Under the pieces are notes generated by a model that was not told the DNA's origin, ran no database searches, and was given only the letters and a program-made list of their open reading frames with translations. DNA of 11,709 bases from UHGV virus genome UHGV-0058547, one strand, 5' to 3'. The stretch is from a virus. The position numbers and the translations under genes were made by a program. Below, in pieces: positions 1 to 5,647 of the stretch; the first letter of the stretch is position 1, and the number at the start of each line of letters is the position of its first letter.

Positions 1-699
1 ACCGGAGGAAGTAGGAACAGTAGCGGACTCACCACCACCGGACTCACCACCACCGGACTCACCACCGCCAGACTCACCACCACCATTTTGGGGGGTTGAG
101 GGTTTATCAGAGGGGTCAGCTACAGCACCTGTAGGCTTCCATGTTGCAGCGCAAACAGTACCATCACCCTGACAAACAATGACACCAGTAGCCTCATATT
201 CACAGCCGTTATAGTAGATATAGCGACCACCATCATATGAATCAACATTATTAAATACACCTTCTTCTGGCGGCTTCGCTTCACAAATTTCTTCTGGTGT
301 CGGGTCAGTAGGTTTTTCATCAGGAACAGAACGCTGAATATTACCAACAATATAAGCCGTTAAAGACCAATATTTATCCTTCTGCCCTGGTGAATCGCTG
401 TAAGTACAATCGCCAGTAAAAACAAGACGGAATTCAGAATCAGGCCAGATACCCTCATAAGTTGGTTTAATCCGAGTAAATACACTCTGAGCACTGGATT
501 TAGCACCCTGACAAGCGGAGGCCTGCATAGCAGCATCAATATAGTAAACCGTTATCTTAGAGCCATCCTGATTGGTTATTTGCTTACTTTCAGCATAGGC
601 AGAACTTTGATAAGTGGATTTAGTAATGCTTTCCCATGACTCAGCATGTGAAAAAGGAGAAATGAGGACAGCGGAAAGAATTAATATTTTCCTTCTCAT
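1..699 (-). CDS. gIII: Minor coat / adsorption protein g3p, N-terminal part (233 codons, runs off the window start)
   Basis: ATG at 699. My manual translation is open down to position 1 and begins [19 protein letters not shown]|ESWES... (signal peptide). Next comes a ~130-aa domain I cannot assign, then a Pro/Glu-rich linker. After that, [33 protein letters not shown] matches the M13 g3p N1 segment RYANYEGCLWNATGVVVCTGDETQCYGTWVPIG. A (GGGES)4 linker follows. This ORF is absent from the ORF track because it has no stop inside the window. Confidence 0.9.
25..84 (-). repeat. Four tandem 15-bp units (ggactcaccaccacc) encoding the (GGGES)4 linker of g3p
   Basis: Units at 25-39, 40-54, 55-69 (1 mismatch) and 70-84 (1 mismatch). 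They are in frame with gIII and are typical glycine-rich inter-domain linkers of Ff-type g3p. Confidence 0.9.
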
Positions 700-710
700 A
701 GTAACCCGCT

Positions 711-736
711 TTAATAAAGGGGCAACGAGTGCCCCT
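711..736 (-). terminator. Rho-independent terminator between gVIII and gIII
   Basis: The minus strand reads AGGGGCA-CTCGT-TGCCCCT followed by TTATTAAAG. The 7-bp GC-rich stem pairs 718-724 with 730-736. Ff has a strong terminator at the same position after gVIII. Confidence 0.7.
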
Positions 737-745
737 GAGTGAAAT

Positions 746-988
746 TCAAACCGCTTTTGAAGAGAATTTTTTGAAAATACGAATGGCAAGCCCAGCGCCA
801 ACCACAGCAACAACAACAGGCCATACTTTACCAATGAGATCATTTGCCTGAGTCAACAAAGCATCCATTGCCTGACCTGCATAATCAGTACCACCTGTAG
901 CGCCTTCAGCCGCAAAAGAACTTGCAGAAATAAAAAGCGCAGTTGAAGCCAGAGCAATTTTATATTTAACAGTAGACAGAATTTTCAT
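746..988 (-). CDS. gVIII: Major coat protein g8p precursor (80 aa)
   Basis: Signal peptide [26 protein letters not shown]|AEG. The mature part is acidic N-terminus, hydrophobic core [14 protein letters not shown] and basic C-terminus [11 protein letters not shown]. It is near-identical in layout to IKe g8p (...QANDLI..WPVV...FKKFSSKAV as recalled). Confidence 0.95.
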
Positions 989-1007
989 AGGAATAACTCC
1001 ATTAAGG

Positions 1008-1103
1008 TTACATTAATCGGTCAGAAAATGATTTAAATGAACCGACCGCATAGAAAAGGGCAAAACCAAAGGTATAAGCCCCGAAGAAATAAACGATATA
1101 CAT
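1008..1103 (-). CDS. gIX: Minor coat protein g9p-like (31 aa, MYIVYFFGAYTFGFALFYAVGSFKSFSDRLM)
   Basis: Internal ATG at 1103 of the 74-aa track ORF. The product is a small hydrophobic protein in the Ff gIX position. Its C-terminus resembles M13 g9p ...ITYFTRLMETSS. Its start overlaps the gVII stop (TAATG). Confidence 0.7.
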   Translation of the reverse strand: MYIVYFFGAYTFGFALFYAVGSFKSFSDRLM

Positions 1104-1189
1104 TAACGAAAGACCCCCGCAGTAATCGCGCCGAGGCCAAAAGAAATAACGATGCCAGACGCTATCAAAATTTGAATAACATCGTCCAT
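1103..1189 (-). CDS. gVII: Minor coat protein g7p-like (28 aa, MDDVIQILIASGIVISFGLGAITAGVFR)
   Basis: Found by manual translation, since it is below the ORF-track size cut-off. The ATG at 1189 lies 2 nt after the upstream gene's stop. The C-terminus GLGAITAGVFR resembles M13 g7p ...ALGIIAGGQR. It occupies the Ff gVII position. Confidence 0.7.
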   Translation of the reverse strand: MDDVIQILIASGIVISFGLGAITAGVFR

Positions 1190-1191
1190 AT

Positions 1192-1509
1192 TTAACCTTT
1201 GATCTCTGCGATGCCACCATCGGAAGCAACATTATAAGTTACACCTTCCCTACCCTCCATTGACCACGCACGGACATAGACAGGAATTTGAACTAATTTC
1301 CCAATGAAAGCATTCGCCTGGTTCATTAGACCTGCGTTAACGAGAGCCTGAGAAACTCGAATAATAATTTGATCCTGCTTTGTACCACCAAAACCATCAG
1401 GTATTTCAAGGCCAATACCAATTTCATTATAATAGCCCTGACCATTAACTTTATTACGTTGGCGGGCTCCCAACATTTTACCCTTAACGAAAAGACCATA
1501 ATTAGACAT
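1192..1509 (-). CDS. 105-aa protein in the gV (ssDNA-binding protein) position; function inferred from synteny only
   Basis: It sits between gII and gVII exactly where Ff/IKe encode g5p. I see no convincing similarity to M13 or IKe g5p as remembered. It is packed tightly against its neighbours: the gII stop is at 1521 and the start here is at 1509. Confidence 0.6.
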   Translation of the reverse strand: MSNYGLFVKGKMLGARQRNKVNGQGYYNEIGIGLEIPDGFGGTKQDQIIIRVSQALVNAGLMNQANAFIGKLVQIPVYVRAWSMEGREGVTYNVASDGGIAEIKG

Positions 1510-1520
1510 ATTACTTTCCT

Positions 1521-1835
1521 TTAATGCCAGCTACTGGCGTGCGAAATACGGTTGTAATCGAAAATAAAACCTTTCTCATAAATCCATAAGGGGATTTCCG
1601 CTGGCTTGGCTTCCAGCGTTCTTATTAGCGGAACAACGTTATTAGAGTCTGGTGAATCACAATAGAAATTAATATCGATACCGAACGAAAGCAATTCTCT
1701 TCTATGGCGATAAAAAGTGTTATGAGGTAACATTTCTTTCATGTTAGCCCCTTGTTTCCAAAGTAAATAAGTTGACTGTATTTTTCTTGGCAGTTTCGTT
1801 ATTTTTTCATCACTTAAAATAGCATTCTGATTCAT
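1521..1835 (-). CDS. gX: g10p-like product from an in-frame internal start in gII (104 aa)
   Basis: The internal ATG at 1835 is preceded by GGGAGA 8 nt upstream. The product starts MNQNAILSDEKI, aligning with the M13 g10p start MNIYDDSAVLDAI. By analogy with Ff; expression not demonstrable from sequence. Confidence 0.55.
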   Translation of the reverse strand: MNQNAILSDEKITKLPRKIQSTYLLWKQGANMKEMLPHNTFYRHRRELLSFGIDINFYCDSPDSNNVVPLIRTLEAKPAEIPLWIYEKGFIFDYNRISHASSWH

Positions 1836-2573
1836 TTCTATTCTCCCTACATATTCAGAGAATAATTGACGTGGTGTTTTCATATTCCAGTTAGCGCCAA
1901 GCGTTAAATTTAAATCAATAAGCTCAGTTGTTCTTAATGTTAATTCAATACGTAATTTATCTTTCGTCCAGTCCAGTAACCCGGCTCGTACAAACTCTTC
2001 GGCTATCTGGTGCCCTTTTTTACCAGAAACGTGTTCATCATATTTTGAATAAAATTTCAGACTCCATCGACGGGAGTTTTTACCTAAATAAACTGTACCG
2101 CCTTTCCCACATGCGCGACCATGGCGTGTTTTAGCTTTAAATTCGGCGGCATAAAGCCATGATCTGACATTTTCCAGCGTAGATAATGAATACATGTAAT
2201 TAATGTCAATACGTGAAATTTTATACTGACCTGCCATAACGGCTTTATAAGACGCTAAATCATGAGGAATATTCAATAAGGATAAAATCCTGGCATAGAC
2301 CGTCAACATGAGCCCTTGTATATCATCCGACCCAACAACAGAATGCCCCTGCAGAAACTTGGAAGGATTACCATCAATGTACAAATGTGTCGCTTTACCT
2401 TCGCCATTAGATCCTATCGATCGTACTTTCATCGTTGCTTCATGCGAACCGCGAACAGTCAGTCGCTTAACGGTTTCCCACTCAATTGCACCGTCAGCAT
2501 CAACGCTGACAACACTCCCCGCCGGAAGCGGTTTGTGTGTGCAAGGGAAAATCCCGGTAAGCCAATCGATCAC
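1521..2573 (-). CDS. gII: Rolling-circle replication initiator g2p (nickase), ~350 aa
   Basis: Colinear matches to M13 g2p: PSKFLQGHSVVG vs PAKVLQGHNVFG; YKISRIDINY vs TTISRIDATF; C-terminal NNVVPLIR vs NNVVPLVR. I prefer the GTG at 2573 as start. It is preceded by GAGGA 7 nt upstream and gives MIDWLTG..., like M13 MIDMLV.... The track ORF extends to a GTG at 2615. Confidence 0.92.
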   Translation of the reverse strand: MIDWLTGIFPCTHKPLPAGSVVSVDADGAIEWETVKRLTVRGSHEATMKVRSIGSNGEGKATHLYIDGNPSKFLQGHSVVGSDDIQGLMLTVYARILSLLNIPHDLASYKAVMAGQYKISRIDINYMYSLSTLENVRSWLYAAEFKAKTRHGRACGKGGTVYLGKNSRRWSLKFYSKYDEHVSGKKGHQIAEEFVRAGLLDWTKDKLRIELTLRTTELIDLNLTLGANWNMKTPRQLFSEYVGRIEMNQNAILSDEKITKLPRKIQSTYLLWKQGANMKEMLPHNTFYRHRRELLSFGIDINFYCDSPDSNNVVPLIRTLEAKPAEIPLWIYEKGFIFDYNRISHASSWH

Positions 2574-2615
2574 GAATAAATCCTCAAAATTACAAAAATG
2601 ACGACTTACTAACAC

Positions 2616-2742
2616 ATGAGTTCAGTAGTTCATTAGTGTTTTAACATTACACCAGTGAGCTAGTGAGTTCAAGAGGATTGGATGATGTGAGTTCATGAGC
2701 ATGTATACTCACTTCAAATATTGCATTGAACGAGCGTAAAAA
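2616..2742. promoter_or_regulatory. Divergent control region between gII and the RHH regulator gene, with a GAGTTCA repeat array
   Basis: GAGTTCA occurs at 2618-2624, 2665-2671 and 2689-2695, with the variant TAGTTCA at 2626-2632. AGTGAG is duplicated at 2654-2659 and 2662-2667, and an inverted GTGAGT lies at 2707-2712. A minus-strand promoter candidate for gII is TTGAAC (2672-2667), a 15-nt spacer, then the extended -10 TGgTGTAAT (2654-2646). Its -35 overlaps one repeat. Confidence 0.55.
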
Positions 2743-2925
2743 ATGGCAAAGCGCACGACTTATAACGTGACGGAAGAAAGAAAAATGAAACTAGAACGAC
2801 TGGCTATAAATGCCAGTGTAAAACTAGGAAAAACAATTACATGGACAGAGATTTTAGGTTATCTGATTGATAACTACTCTAAAGATGCAGCAGAAGATCT
2901 CATGTCTGCCAAACAAAAGGATTAA
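2743..2925 (+). CDS. Small ribbon-helix-helix (CopG/Arc-like) transcriptional regulator, candidate phage repressor (60 aa)
   Basis: The N-terminus KRTTYNVTEERKMKLERLA fits a beta-strand then helix pattern, with a second helix at TWTEILGYLIDNY. It is transcribed divergently from gII across a repeat-bearing region. Confidence 0.65.
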   Translation: MAKRTTYNVTEERKMKLERLAINASVKLGKTITWTEILGYLIDNYSKDAAEDLMSAKQKD

Positions 2926-2942
2926 GTACCACGAATGGTACA

Positions 2943-2978
2943 AACGTGCAGTATTACCTACACTGCACGTTCTTTATT
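2943..2978 (+). terminator. Perfect 10-bp stem-loop after the RHH gene (possible terminator; see origin-like motif finding)
   Basis: AACGTGCAGT (2943-2952) pairs with ACTGCACGTT (2962-2971) across a 9-nt loop, followed by CTTTATT. A smaller hairpin GTACCA-cgaa-TGGTAC at 2926-2941 precedes it. Confidence 0.45.
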
Positions 2979-3013
2979 GTGCGGATTTTGAACAGCAACA
3001 AAGGATCAAAAGG

Positions 3014-3436
3014 ATGAGTAGAAATAACGAAACAAGCGGCGTTGAACTGGTTGTTGTAGGCGTATTTGCTTTCTGTCTGGCAGTTGTTGCCTGGCTAATG
3101 AAAACTTTCGATGTTGAATGGCAAACAGCACTGGAAACTGCGCCTGGCCTGATAGTCTGGCTGCTTGTTGTCGGTGCGGGGATCTTTTTCGGGATCAAAA
3201 TGGAAACTGGCCTTATTCGCTGGGGTGCTCCACTGGCGATCGCCCTTCTGATTCCGGTATTCAAGCCAATTCTTAAGGAAGCTGCCGGAGTTCGTGAAAC
3301 GGGTGGGCTGGTTTTCGATGATATGGTTTCGTGGTATGGAACTGGCTGGGGAATGTCTCTGATGTTCTTCGGGATTCTTATCGTCGGATACGGTCTGCTT
3401 TATTGGTGGCACAGAAGGAATTCATATTATTGGTGA
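3014..3436 (+). CDS. Small integral membrane protein, four predicted TM helices (140 aa), unknown function
   Basis: ATG at 3014, with AAGGA 8 nt upstream. The hydrophobic segments are VELVVVGVFAFCLAVVAWLM, GLIVWLLVVGAGIFFGI, WGAPLAIALLIPVF and GMSLMFFGILIVGYGLLYWW. The upstream extension of the track ORF overlaps the RHH gene and looks spurious. Confidence 0.75.
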   Translation: MSRNNETSGVELVVVGVFAFCLAVVAWLMKTFDVEWQTALETAPGLIVWLLVVGAGIFFGIKMETGLIRWGAPLAIALLIPVFKPILKEAAGVRETGGLVFDDMVSWYGTGWGMSLMFFGILIVGYGLLYWWHRRNSYYW

Positions 3437-3508
3437 ATGTCAATCACTTGAATTTACAGGTTTTTTATAATTTCAGCCCGCGCTAGTTTGATATTGTGAA
3501 AGGTGAAG

Positions 3509-4084
3509 ATGAGTATGCAACCGAATGAAGAAATGGACCTCAGGAAATTTTACGCAGAGGGAACAGCTGACTACTTAAAAACTAAAATCAAAAAAAGCGA
3601 ACGACTTTTAAAAATAAACCAATATCTATCATTTGCCCTCCCTGTCCTAGTTGGAGGATACGCATCGGTTGATCACAGCTCCAAATATTTTGATTTTTTA
3701 GTTTGGGGCACAGGGATATTATCAGTGATAGTCTTGCTTTCTAATTTATACACACTGGTCATGAAGACTGATGAAAATTTATCTCGATATCTGGAATCAT
3801 ACTCTTTCAATAAACTCCTAACTGATTTGTATGGCGAACTGTCGAGCATGTTTAAATCAAAGACAGGCAACCAGCAACCCGCTAACCATTTGTTTTCAGT
3901 GATAAAATCAAAAGATGACTTCAATGCCAAGGAAGATGAAAAATATGTTAGCAATAATGATAAGAAACGGATTATGTTCGACATTCTGGTAAAGAAAAAT
4001 AAAGAATGCGTACGTTGCAATAAAATACCGACTAAATTTAACAAGCGGAAAGGTTGCACAAATTGTGGCAATCTCGTGAAATAA
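3509..4084 (+). CDS. SLATT-like 2-TM protein with C-terminal CxxC-x12-CxxC zinc ribbon (~191 aa)
   Basis: An N-terminal amphipathic helix (YLKTKIKKSERLLKINQY) runs into two closely spaced TM helices (LSFALPVLVGGYASV and FLVWGTGILSVIVLLSNLYTLV). A soluble helical region follows, then CVRCNKIPTKFNKRKGCTNCG. The start is ambiguous: GTG 3503, ATG 3509, or ATG 3515. ATG 3515 has the best spacing to AAGGTG. Confidence 0.8.
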   Translation: MSMQPNEEMDLRKFYAEGTADYLKTKIKKSERLLKINQYLSFALPVLVGGYASVDHSSKYFDFLVWGTGILSVIVLLSNLYTLVMKTDENLSRYLESYSFNKLLTDLYGELSSMFKSKTGNQQPANHLFSVIKSKDDFNAKEDEKYVSNNDKKRIMFDILVKKNKECVRCNKIPTKFNKRKGCTNCGNLVK

Positions 4085-4095
4085 AGGAGAAACAA

Positions 4096-4287
4096 ATGAG
4101 TTATAAAGTAGATCAAGTCAAAGCTCTCTGGCTTCAATTGACTGATGCGGAGAAAAAAGAATTTACAACATATCTTTTTAATGGTGAAAAAAAATCCTTA
4201 CGTGAAGGATTCGAAAGTTTTAGTGTGAATAAAAGCACTACAATGCAATTTGGTGATGCAAACGTCTGCCCTGCTTGCGGAAAATAA
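4096..4287 (+). CDS. 63-aa protein with C-terminal CPACGK motif, partner of the preceding gene
   Basis: Strong SD AAGGAG 6 nt upstream of the ATG at 4096, and only 11 nt after the upstream stop. The sequence is MSYKVDQVKALWLQLTDAEKKEF...GDANVCPACGK. The track's upstream TTG/CTG-type extension is unlikely. Confidence 0.75.
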   Translation: MSYKVDQVKALWLQLTDAEKKEFTTYLFNGEKKSLREGFESFSVNKSTTMQFGDANVCPACGK

Positions 4288-4329
4288 AATCTAAAAGATT
4301 TTGGTTCGCACAATGACGTTATGCTAAAG

Positions 4330-4366
4330 AGGCCGCTGCGGGATTCGATTTTCGCAGCGGCCTTTT
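4330..4366 (+). terminator. Rho-independent terminator ending the plus-strand accessory operon
   Basis: An 11-bp perfect GC-rich stem, AGGCCGCTGCG (4330-4340) with CGCAGCGGCCT (4353-4363), has a 12-nt loop and is followed by TTTT. Confidence 0.8.
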
Positions 4367-4396
4367 CAACATAACGAGTCCTACATTATGCGCACC
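4364..4396 (-). other. dif-like Xer recombination site A (atypical 11-bp central region)
   Basis: The minus strand reads GGTGCGCATAA-TGTAGGACTCG-TTATGTTGAAA. E. coli dif is GGTGCGCATAA-TGTATA-TTATGTTAAAT. The XerC arm matches 11/11 and the XerD-like arm 9/11, but the spacer is 11 bp. Confidence 0.6.
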
Positions 4397-4555
4397 AACA
4401 TAAACCAAGGGAGAATCCAGTGATTTGTGGACATCCTTGTTCTCGCAGAATATGGATGTGCTGAGTCTGGTTGGTTCGCCTAACGGTTGAAATGTCTTGC
4501 GGCCTTCACTGGGCTTGTTGAGTGTTCTGAATGTTCGCTTCAGGAACTGATTCAA

Positions 4556-5647
4556 ATGAAACGATTAATACTTGCTGCGACTGTAATAAGTGCAAGCCTG
4601 CTGCCATTTACCTGTTCGGCAAATGCCGACTCACTGGGTATCAATAAAGACTGCGATAACCATCCTGTCAGCCAGTACGGCATGGACACCATTACCGCAT
4701 TCAGTCAGTACAAGACGGAATCGAAAAAATTTAAAGATGCACTGACTGCGTTCTGCAATAAAGGCAAAACCATGGGCGACATGGGATTTGAAGCTGCCAA
4801 TGCTCACTCTCTTGCTGAAGCAAGGAAATGGACTGACTCCAGTCTTCCGGGGGGAAATGAAGAGCAGAAAAAATTTTCAGCAGCCATGGGGAGCCTGCTT
4901 TACTATGCAATGCTGAATGGATTCTCTGGTTTTGACTATCCCAGGTCGCCCGAGCAAAAAGAAAAATCAGTAAGCACATTTAATCCAAATGAGATATGTG
5001 ATGACATATCATCTAAAGCAGCCAAATATTCAACCTCGAATCTCCCCCCTCAAGTACAGATTTCATTAGCTGAGTGGAATCAAATCAAAGGCGAGTTTCA
5101 GATGGTGTGTTTTGCGGGAGTTATGGCGGGTAACAATCGCCAGTCGGTTGACTCAAAAATATTGGCTGGAATGAATGATATAGGCCCAGAAGTGAATTTG
5201 AGTGCTTATCGTTCTGGTTCGGAATACCCAAAGCCTCGCAGCAAAAACAACACGGAAAAAATTGATGCTACAGCAAGGGAGAAAGCGGCTGCAAAGAAGA
5301 AAGCAGATGCAGCCAGAAAACAAAGTGCCACCAACAAAACAAAGCAGGCTGACGATTATAAATCCAGGAGTGTTCGCCTTGACTCCCCCGATTTTCAACG
5401 CTTTCAGTCTTCACTCAGAAATGAATTTATGCGGCGAATTGGTGATGCGAAGCGTTTTTCAGGAAAAGAATGTTCAATAAATGTCTGGATGTCACAGAAA
5501 GGTGAGGTTCTGTCAGCCAGGAAGGAATCCGGAGATGAAGAGCTTTGCTCTGTGGTATTGCAGGCATCGAAGGGAATGAGGCTTAGCCCTATGAGTAATG
5601 AAGTTTACGGAGTGTTCCGTAATCCATCCCTCAACTTTAAATTCTAG
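4556..5647 (+). CDS. Secreted protein with TolA domain II/III-like C-terminus (363 aa)
   Basis: ATG at 4556. The track ORF instead starts at an upstream TTG. Sec signal MKRLILAATVISASLLPFTCSANA|DS. There is a Lys/Ala-rich stretch REKAAAKKKADAARKQ. The C-terminus is GKECSINVWMSQKGEVLSARKESGDEELCSVVLQASKGMRLSPMSNEVYGVFRNPSLNFKF, compared with the E. coli TolA C-terminus GKTCTLRIKLAPDGMLLDIKPEGGDPALCQAALAAAKLAKIPKPPSQAVYEVFKNAPLDFKP as recalled. Confidence 0.85.
   Translation: MKRLILAATVISASLLPFTCSANADSLGINKDCDNHPVSQYGMDTITAFSQYKTESKKFKDALTAFCNKGKTMGDMGFEAANAHSLAEARKWTDSSLPGGNEEQKKFSAAMGSLLYYAMLNGFSGFDYPRSPEQKEKSVSTFNPNEICDDISSKAAKYSTSNLPPQVQISLAEWNQIKGEFQMVCFAGVMAGNNRQSVDSKILAGMNDIGPEVNLSAYRSGSEYPKPRSKNNTEKIDATAREKAAAKKKADAARKQSATNKTKQADDYKSRSVRLDSPDFQRFQSSLRNEFMRRIGDAKRFSGKECSINVWMSQKGEVLSARKESGDEELCSVVLQASKGMRLSPMSNEVYGVFRNPSLNFKF

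Follow-up and report, generated by a model that had tools for sequence, protein, structure and literature searches.

A mobile two-gene cassette in a filamentous prophage encodes a Mob_CxxC_CxxC-family membrane protein with a SLATT-like module and a small zinc-knuckle partner

What might a pair of small genes do that sits beside the attachment site of a filamentous prophage? The question is posed by UHGV virus genome UHGV-0058547, of which we analyzed one stretch of 11,709 nucleotides (the window). A first-pass annotation had marked positions 3503-4287 as a candidate membrane-disrupting defence or toxin cassette carried by an inovirus, with a gene for a 191-residue protein (gene 1) followed by one for a 63-residue partner (gene 2). 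In the descriptive part of our answer, namely the protein family, the architecture, the partner, and the cassette, we are highly confident. The defence or toxin reading came out of the analysis better motivated and is plausible, with the toxin role a prediction.

A mobilome protein family and its obligate small partner

Both open reading frames (ORFs) lie on the plus strand with the lengths first assigned to them. Gene 1 (3509-4084) ends in TAA (4082-4084) and has three candidate starts, GTG 3503, ATG 3509, and ATG 3515. On the identical sequence of Escherichia coli strain C10, the Prokaryotic Genome Annotation Pipeline picks the 191-residue form and likewise annotates it as a Mob_CxxC_CxxC-family protein, while most close homologues begin at the third codon (189 residues). 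By its profile match, the product falls unambiguously within TIGR04402, the "mobilome CxxCx(11)CxxC protein" family, a name that the first pass had put forward and that is confirmed here. The match scores 143.1 bits against a cutoff of 70 (E 1.1e-41) and takes in residues 7-188 of the 191 and nearly the whole profile (positions 2-179 of 180). Pfam PF27874 (Mob_CxxC_CxxC), which is precomputed on homologues of gene 1, is the same family.

A HMMER search of 1.84 billion cluster representatives returned 264 relatives at E<=1e-3, nearly all of 180-200 residues with a C-terminal double CxxC. Invariant positions in an alignment of 128 members are limited to the four cysteines and P174; P45, G49 (both in the first transmembrane helix, TM1), and D143 come close. 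The window protein resembles the family in its full-length match, its size of ~190 residues, its C-terminal double CxxC, and its mobile-element setting, which comprises the inovirus prophage, plasmids, and mini-elements or islands. It differs in that the cysteine spacing of the window's enterobacterial subgroup is x12, whereas x11 is the family norm, and the family definition apparently omits the small partner described below. Identity between the subgroup and the bulk of the family is 20-28%. A literature search found no paper naming the Mob_CxxC_CxxC family, and a hidden Markov model (HMM) search of the family profile against PDB sequences gave nothing meaningful.

Gene 2 (4096-4287, +) begins at ATG 4096, 11 nt after gene 1, behind the strong ribosome-binding site that the first pass had pointed out (AGGAG, 4085-4089, +; 6 nt ahead of the ATG), and its product ends in CPACGK. 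The product starts with a helix that bears the motif LW.QL.D.EKKEF and closes with a zinc knuckle, FGD..VCPACGK (residues 58-63, 4267-4284, +). The early suggestion that the small gene is a coupled partner held up across the family. Homologues of gene 1 in Pectobacterium and Providencia (42-51% identity) each precede a 61-residue gene product that is 33% identical to that of gene 2. In a wider census, which took in plasmids of E. coli (IncF), Plesiomonas, Flavobacterium, and Rhodococcus, a deltaproteobacterial metagenome-assembled genome (MAG), and 20 metagenome contigs, a partner stood downstream of the large gene at 25 of 27 loci, covering Gammaproteobacteria, Actinomycetota, Bacteroidota, the deltaproteobacterial MAG, and metagenomes. 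At the remaining two, just ~210-225 nt are left before the contig end, too short to judge. The partner ORF ends 180-230 nt past the large-gene stop and terminates in (L/F)GP....C(P)xCG[K/R]. Full-length alignment of 26 partners gave an N-terminal helix, "vL.GF..L..hE+.EF", and the C-terminal knuckle, with only C58, C61, and G62 invariant.

The two proteins are also found joined. P0130, a library representative of 260 residues, is a natural in-frame fusion of both, and P0032, a Providencia large protein of 231 residues, is a partial fusion in which a partner-like N-terminal helix is appended after the zinc ribbon. Such fusions imply that both proteins lie on the same side of the membrane. An AlphaFold2 (AF2) model of P0130 built without an alignment had a predicted local distance difference test score (pLDDT) of 56, too low to read an interface. 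From the census and the fusions, we conclude that the small gene is an obligate, universal partner of the Mob_CxxC_CxxC protein, a relationship that is new here. Gene 1 shows pN of 0.04-0.05 against pS of 0.74-0.77 (saturated), and gene 2 has a dN/dS of 0.09-0.16. Since both are under purifying selection and have homologues across phyla, they are real genes and not chance ORFs.

Gene 2 has no Pfam, NCBIfam, PHROG, PADLOC, or PDB family match, and the partner profile run against PDB sequences matches just C2H2-type "CPxCGK" knuckles. A single CPxCG knuckle is half of a zinc site, which would have to be completed by a second partner copy, as in the Rad50 hook, or by another protein. As a separate observation, two tandem partner paralogues follow the large gene in Pectobacterium (L002, 676-1047) and Providencia (L003, 8723-9105). 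Two other readings of the partner were considered and rejected: in the case of a zinc-binding anti-sigma (ZAS)-like pair, the size of the partner falls well short of a sigma factor and the HxxxCxxC motif is absent; for a precursor of a ribosomally synthesized and post-translationally modified peptide, a modifying enzyme is never adjacent.

A SLATT-like module in the large protein

The layout first proposed for gene 1, an amphipathic helix leading into two closely spaced transmembrane helices, was recovered by hydropathy and AF2 alike. This SLATT-like half (3521-3766, +) consists of a lysine-rich amphipathic helix (residues 5-35), TM1 (residues 36-54, 3614-3670, +), a short loop, and a second transmembrane helix, TM2 (residues 60-86, 3686-3766, +). 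TM2 is strongly hydrophobic and clear in the hydropathy profile (Kyte-Doolittle up to 1.8); TM1 is moderately hydrophobic and weaker, at ~1.1 by hand sum, under the scan cut-off of 1.2. The AF2 model, built on 17 homologues (pLDDT 81.5; predicted template modelling score 0.66), folds helices 5-52 and 59-87 around a loop at 53-58 into a hairpin, followed by helices 89-117, 119-143, and 149-162 and a terminal beta-hairpin knuckle. The modelled helices form a predicted cytoplasmic region (residues 89-162, 3773-3994, +) with a conserved D143-E-K motif and a basic helix preceding the zinc ribbon. That ribbon (4007-4066, +), a beta-hairpin in the model, has the CxxC-x12-CxxC pattern noted at the outset, as C167-x2-C170-x12-C183-x2-C186. 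We infer an inner-membrane protein with both termini cytoplasmic.

Whether this half belongs to the SLATT effectors received a divided answer. On its own, the window protein falls below every curated threshold, with 13.3 bits for SLATT_1 against 41 and 13.7 for DUF4231 against 24.7; the weak SLATT_1 alignment covers residues 20-94. At the level of the family, the signal is specific. When the 128 members were scanned one by one with hmmscan, 75 of 128 matched SLATT_1 (best E 1.8e-6), 32 SLATT_4, 6 SLATT_5, and 2 SLATT_6 among the NCBIfam models, and 23 matched DUF4231, 6 SLATT_4, and 3 SLATT_fungal among those of Pfam. The alignments are colinear, placing protein positions ~27-96 onto profile positions 13-80. 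As a control that preserves composition and hydrophobic layout, 50 family sequences were reversed; none of the 50 matched any SLATT model, and no family was matched by more than one of them. Ten central members scanned singly scored just 13-18 bits against SLATT, and some members also match PspM weakly. When the AF2 model was searched with Foldseek against the predicted viral structures of BFVD, 8 of the best 23 hits (ranks 2, 3, 4, 8, 11, 13, 21, and 23) were giant-virus proteins annotated as SLATT, with weak E values of 0.04-0.6. Together, these results point to a divergent SLATT-type module in the N-terminal half of gene 1, which we call SLATT-like; being sub-threshold, it should not be filed as a SLATT member.

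SLATT proteins are predicted pore-forming effectors in CBASS, DRT10/UG17, RADAR, DRT3, AbiA, and GAP1, described as highly mobile, exchangeable effector modules (PMC9226505, PMC7159879, bioRxiv 10.64898/2026.04.29.721553), and the DRT10 preprint (10.64898/2026.04.29.721553) describes the mode of their activation as an open question. Gene 1 resembles the known effectors (NCBIfam SLATT_1-6; Pfam SLATT_1-5, SLATT_fungal, and DUF4231) in its size of ~190 residues, its N-terminal helix and two-helix hairpin, and its remote sequence similarity, perhaps also in fold, and its family shares with them a mobile habit and conflict contexts (for SLATT, PMC9226505). It is unlike them in its scores, in its C-terminal zinc ribbon, in pairing with a 60-70-residue zinc-knuckle protein, and in the lack of an adjacent signal enzyme. 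The last point agrees with the first reading of the locus: no SMODS, SLOG, reverse transcriptase, or other signal generator was found in the window or at any locus inspected.

A variable accessory slot in a dif-integrating inovirus

Comparison with sister prophages delimits the cassette. Their backbone is 93-98% identical to the window up to 3434 and again from 4301, with different genes in between, and the variable segment (3435-4300, +) contains precisely the two genes. Their GC content is 35-36%, against 41.6% for the whole window. Outside this phage, the same pair travels in other company. Enterobacter hormaechei shares DNA identity limited to 3515-4286, with the pair beside ParDE and phage genes absent; Edwardsiella carries the cassette in a mini-element with the upstream ribbon-helix-helix (RHH)-like gene and the att region; and Providencia has it with just a Rep_trans gene, next to hipBA. 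Judged from these comparisons, the cassette is a self-contained, horizontally mobile two-gene unit in a variable accessory slot, on the repressor-side strand and beside attP/dif.

The alternative occupants of the slot were examined in the sister prophages. Strain HUM3355 has two hypothetical proteins there, and strain 85.0412 has three. In strain A1.S1.65, the slot holds a 264-residue protein with a DpnII/MboI restriction-endonuclease (REase) domain (L032, 3592-4386; PF18742, 198 bits; PADLOC Aga_Helical-REase, 1.3e-34, and PDC-S35) together with a DUF6953 pseudogene. Strain JA0266 has a 309-residue AbiJ_NTD4+DUF7014 protein (L033, 3608-4537; PADLOC PDC-S32). With abortive infection (Abi)-like and REase-like cargo in the position that corresponds to window 3435-4300, these inoviruses seem to have a hotspot for defence genes in their dif-proximal slot. 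Relative to existing annotation and literature, the universal partner, the pair as a discrete mobile cassette, and the slot shared with Abi-like and nuclease-like genes are new.

The same comparisons bear on the idea that the pair serves the inovirus life cycle itself, by controlling assembly or secretion, by controlling Xer integration or excision, or by excluding related phages at the membrane. A membrane site near the assembly machinery is plausible and the proximity to attP suggestive, and there are known cases of superinfection being blocked by accessory proteins of inoviruses (PMC8764522, PMC6813254). Against this, sister phages with backbones at least 96-98% identical do without the pair, the cassette occurs in just 1 of 5426 complete E. 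coli genomes, and the family lives mainly on plasmids and in unrelated phyla. We regard a life-cycle role as very improbable.

The pair had been placed in a repressor-side operon ending at a strong terminator, and of this the location and the hairpin stand. A GC-rich hairpin with a short U run lies at 4317-4376 (dG -38.2 kcal/mol) and is probably a bidirectional terminator; a simple terminator scan missed it, as its loop exceeds the 8 nt that the rule of that scan allows. Because the hairpin is kept in sister prophages with other cargo, it belongs to the phage backbone beside attP, bounding the cassette from outside. Two genes precede the cassette on the same strand and in the same operon, opposite to the structural genes. 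The first (2743-2925, +) encodes a 60-residue protein (phrog_2503) that looks like an RHH-like repressor, with a helix-turn-helix protein instead in some sister phages. The second (3014-3436, +) encodes a 140-residue hydrophobic protein with several apparent transmembrane segments (phrog_4174), possibly an exclusion factor. A possible weak promoter and Shine-Dalgarno (SD) sequence lie at 3466-3505 (+), with a -10 TATAAT at 3466-3471, a poor -35, and an SD-like AAAGGTG at 3499-3505; the promoter scan made no call there, and the cassette could just as well be transcribed together with the upstream genes. Separately, 4301-4398 (core 4302-4373) is a repeat found at 89-98% identity in 646 E. coli records at 824 places, 475 of them on IncF/ColV-type plasmids; it is mostly unannotated and in some cases lies beside doc-family toxin or TIR genes. 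It may be a mobile terminator, a piece of an Xer/cer-like site, or something else.

The carrier itself was characterized through its core genes, which occupy the minus strand: the replication protein pII (1521-2615; Phage_CRI, 8.7e-70), pV (1192-1509), pVIII (746-988), and pVI, pI/Zot, and the pIV secretin (8387-11099). Matches to phage IKe and the Erwinia PEar phages are confined to pIV, at ~80% identity. The phage parts of the window match E. coli C10 at 99.4-99.8% identity, and the 1-kb stretch with the cassette at 100%. In that strain, the phage forms a tandem prophage of 8,490 bp in the dif region, beside the lsr operon and a remnant of hipA; in sister strains, the prophage adjoins hipBA, next to dif. 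Window and C10 phage have GGGES repeats in pIII, tandem integration at dif, and reverse-oriented accessory ORFs beside dif, all traits of the UPΦ group, which identify the phage as a UPΦ-like (Lineavirus-related) dif-integrating inovirus, kin of IKe. These traits, the IKe-related backbone, and the variability of the reversed ORFs next to dif are shared with the UPΦ/CUSΦ/YpfΦ accessory region (PMC7307601). In that study, accessory ORFs vary between phages and are assigned no function or family; here, one cargo is identified, in a slot that in sister phages holds Abi-like and REase-like genes. A tblastn search of 50,697 deposited phage genomes, a collection from which UPΦ-type prophages are missing, gave no match for the window protein or for a central family member, and no close relative of the window subgroup was found among GTDB representative genomes or in IMG/VR.

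The window is a composite. Positions 24-4398 and 7606-11705 are phage, and 4399-7608 is a separate ~3.2-kb element. A motif search found a dif-like XerCD site at 4369-4398 (-), an attP or a junction, whose perfect XerC arm is the reverse complement of GGTGCGCATAA at 4386-4396, and the phage meets non-phage DNA at ~4398. The element is flanked by dif-like XerC arms at 4386-4396 and 7609-7619; in C10, it is missing from the first prophage copy and has the second copy on one side and the hipA remnant on the other. In all probability, it is an Xer-dependent integrative element (IMEX) of its own in the dif array. One of its genes (4487-5647, +; likely start ATG 4556) encodes a secreted-looking protein (MKRLILAATVISASLLPFTCSANA...) with TolA domain III at its C-terminus (PF06519, 6.3e-11; TIGR02794, 4e-16; phrog_5772), and the middle of this gene is unlike its C10 counterpart. 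TolA-III is the co-receptor bound by filamentous-phage pIII, and for this reason a periplasmic copy could act as a decoy against superinfection or colicins; a literature search found no such TolA-III decoy reported. A second gene of the element (6461-7408, +) encodes a 315-residue protein that matches phage HNH-endonuclease families (phrog_2081, 2e-35; phrog_953, 7e-23), with no family above cutoff in a Pfam scan.

Gene III, for the attachment protein, is split by the window ends (1-699 and 11099-11709, -) within the GGGES-repeat linker. When the window is circularized, the halves are in different frames, and it must therefore be either a slice of a tandem array or an assembly in which repeats have collapsed, and not a clean circle. 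Between attP and gene IV lie two conserved minus-strand genes, one for a 77-residue protein with two CxxC pairs (7658-7891; phrog_5435) and one for a 102-residue protein (8009-8317; phrog_4115). The two probably correspond to the pair of "UPΦ-specific" genes mentioned, with function not known, by Shapiro and Putonti in 2020 (PMC7307601). An Rfam scan of the window gave no match.

Candidate functions of the pair

Our working model is a conflict module expressed in the lysogen, in which a membrane effector is controlled by the mini-protein; we judge the chances that it holds to be evenly balanced. The pair would be expressed from the prophage, and the mini-protein would bind the membrane protein at its cytoplasmic tail or zinc ribbon, holding the effector inactive. 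Displacement, titration, or degradation of the partner, for which we conjecture superinfection by a phage, a shut-off of transcription, or loss of the element as possible triggers, would free the SLATT-like hairpins to oligomerize and depolarize the membrane. Arrest or death of the cell would then result in abortive infection or exclusion and, incidentally, in addiction to the element.

Homologues do sit in the mobile and conflict contexts that this idea had called for. With a central member as tblastn query, the family was found on 353 plasmids, 325 of them from E. coli and 315 conjugative, and it is also present on non-conjugative Flavobacterium and Streptomyces plasmids. The pair lies near HigB and a TIR and caspase pair on a Plesiomonas plasmid, and near a restriction endonuclease and a helicase and DUF1156 pair on a Rhodococcus plasmid. 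Searches for the main family turned up a single genome locus and 20 from metagenomes; at six longer loci, of which five are metagenome contigs and one is the deltaproteobacterial MAG, the neighbours include DNA methylases, resolvases, AbiEi/AbiEii, TrbM, UvrD with a PD-(D/E)XK protein, and a transposase.

On an IncF plasmid, the pair is co-oriented between sopAB and antirestriction/DUF1380/DUF3560 genes, a stretch of F-like plasmids that we take to be the leading region. This position would suit a non-lethal role in establishment, anti-defence, or regulation. Soon after the element enters the cell, the zinc-ribbon protein, anchored in the membrane, and its adaptor would act without forming a pore, for instance by sequestering a host factor there or by altering envelope stress. 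Binding to nucleic acids or proteins is common among zinc ribbons, single-stranded DNA is the form in which most carriers (conjugative elements and an inovirus) enter, and the weak PspM matches of some members point the same way. Set against this, the phage copy is on the strand opposite to the structural genes and so could not be read from incoming single-stranded DNA, the specific SLATT signal indicates an effector-type domain, and the family extends to the non-conjugative plasmids just mentioned. We consider such a role decidedly unlikely.

Decayed copies offer a further view of the pair. In Yersinia enterocolitica (L037-L039, 5699-6192; at least 24 contigs), the large gene has lost codons 1-95, and with them both transmembrane helices, next to an intact small gene, a 5' deletion that fits inactivation of a costly gene. 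In P0027, a deletion joins the middle of the large protein to the C-terminal half of the small one, and in P0029 (E. coli) the upstream membrane protein is fused to the C-terminus of the small protein. The Yersinia arrangement would also suit pure addiction by post-segregational killing, with a stable membrane toxin and a labile mini-protein antitoxin that stabilize the prophage, plasmid, or IMEX and block no phage. Such a function would be in keeping with a two-gene unit that travels on plasmids, on mini-elements, and in an unstable dif-integrated tandem prophage, and with the toxin-antitoxin systems (ParDE, HigB, and HipBA) among its neighbours. The cassette proteins, however, have no homology to known toxin-antitoxin families, and the genes that sister phages put in the slot are Abi-like and nuclease-like, not classic toxin-antitoxin systems. 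Addiction as the sole function seems unlikely to us; since addiction and abortive infection are not mutually exclusive, it is in part a sub-case of the conflict-module model.

For that model, the support is circumstantial and consists of the SLATT signal, the obligate pairing with its fusions, the mobility of the cassette, the slot shared with Abi-like and REase-like cargo, and the Yersinia deletion. In architecture, the cassette resembles membrane-toxin Abi and toxin-antitoxin modules (RexAB-type; higBA/hicAB, with the small gene second) as a two-gene prophage or plasmid operon, plausibly lysogen-expressed, that couples a small cytoplasmic partner with a membrane protein; its proteins have no sequence relationship to any of these modules. 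Several points weigh against the model. With the sensor enzyme absent, the trigger is pure conjecture. The order of large gene before small and the translational coupling suit a structural complex as well as a toxin and antitoxin, the IncF position beside antirestriction genes would suit establishment, and the cargo-slot argument is one of guilt by location. Decay is not consistently anti-toxin, since P0034 and P0035 retain the transmembrane half and have lost the C-terminus. Finally, PADLOC-DB 2.0.0 (5027 models) returned no match at E<=1 for either window protein; for the IncF homologues, it returned none at E<=0.01.

A broader proposal, which we put forward tentatively and think somewhat doubtful, is that the family represents a hitherto unrecognized, phylum-spanning, sensor-less SLATT-type system in which a pore-forming effector is gated directly by a ~65-residue protein through a shared or intermolecular zinc site, not by a nucleotide messenger, and that the UPΦ/CUSΦ/YpfΦ dif-proximal slot is a defence-cargo hotspot like those of P2/P4. 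Our analysis would give a first functional hypothesis and a minimal, testable two-gene unit for a family whose annotated members span phyla and number in the hundreds on IncF plasmids of E. coli. If the hypothesis is true, the pair would be a SLATT-like effector with a single mini-protein regulator, and it could make the question of SLATT activation tractable. The findings also recommend the accessory slot carried by dif-integrating filamentous prophages of Enterobacterales, the pathogen-borne CUSΦ/YpfΦ group among them, as a place to seek defence genes.

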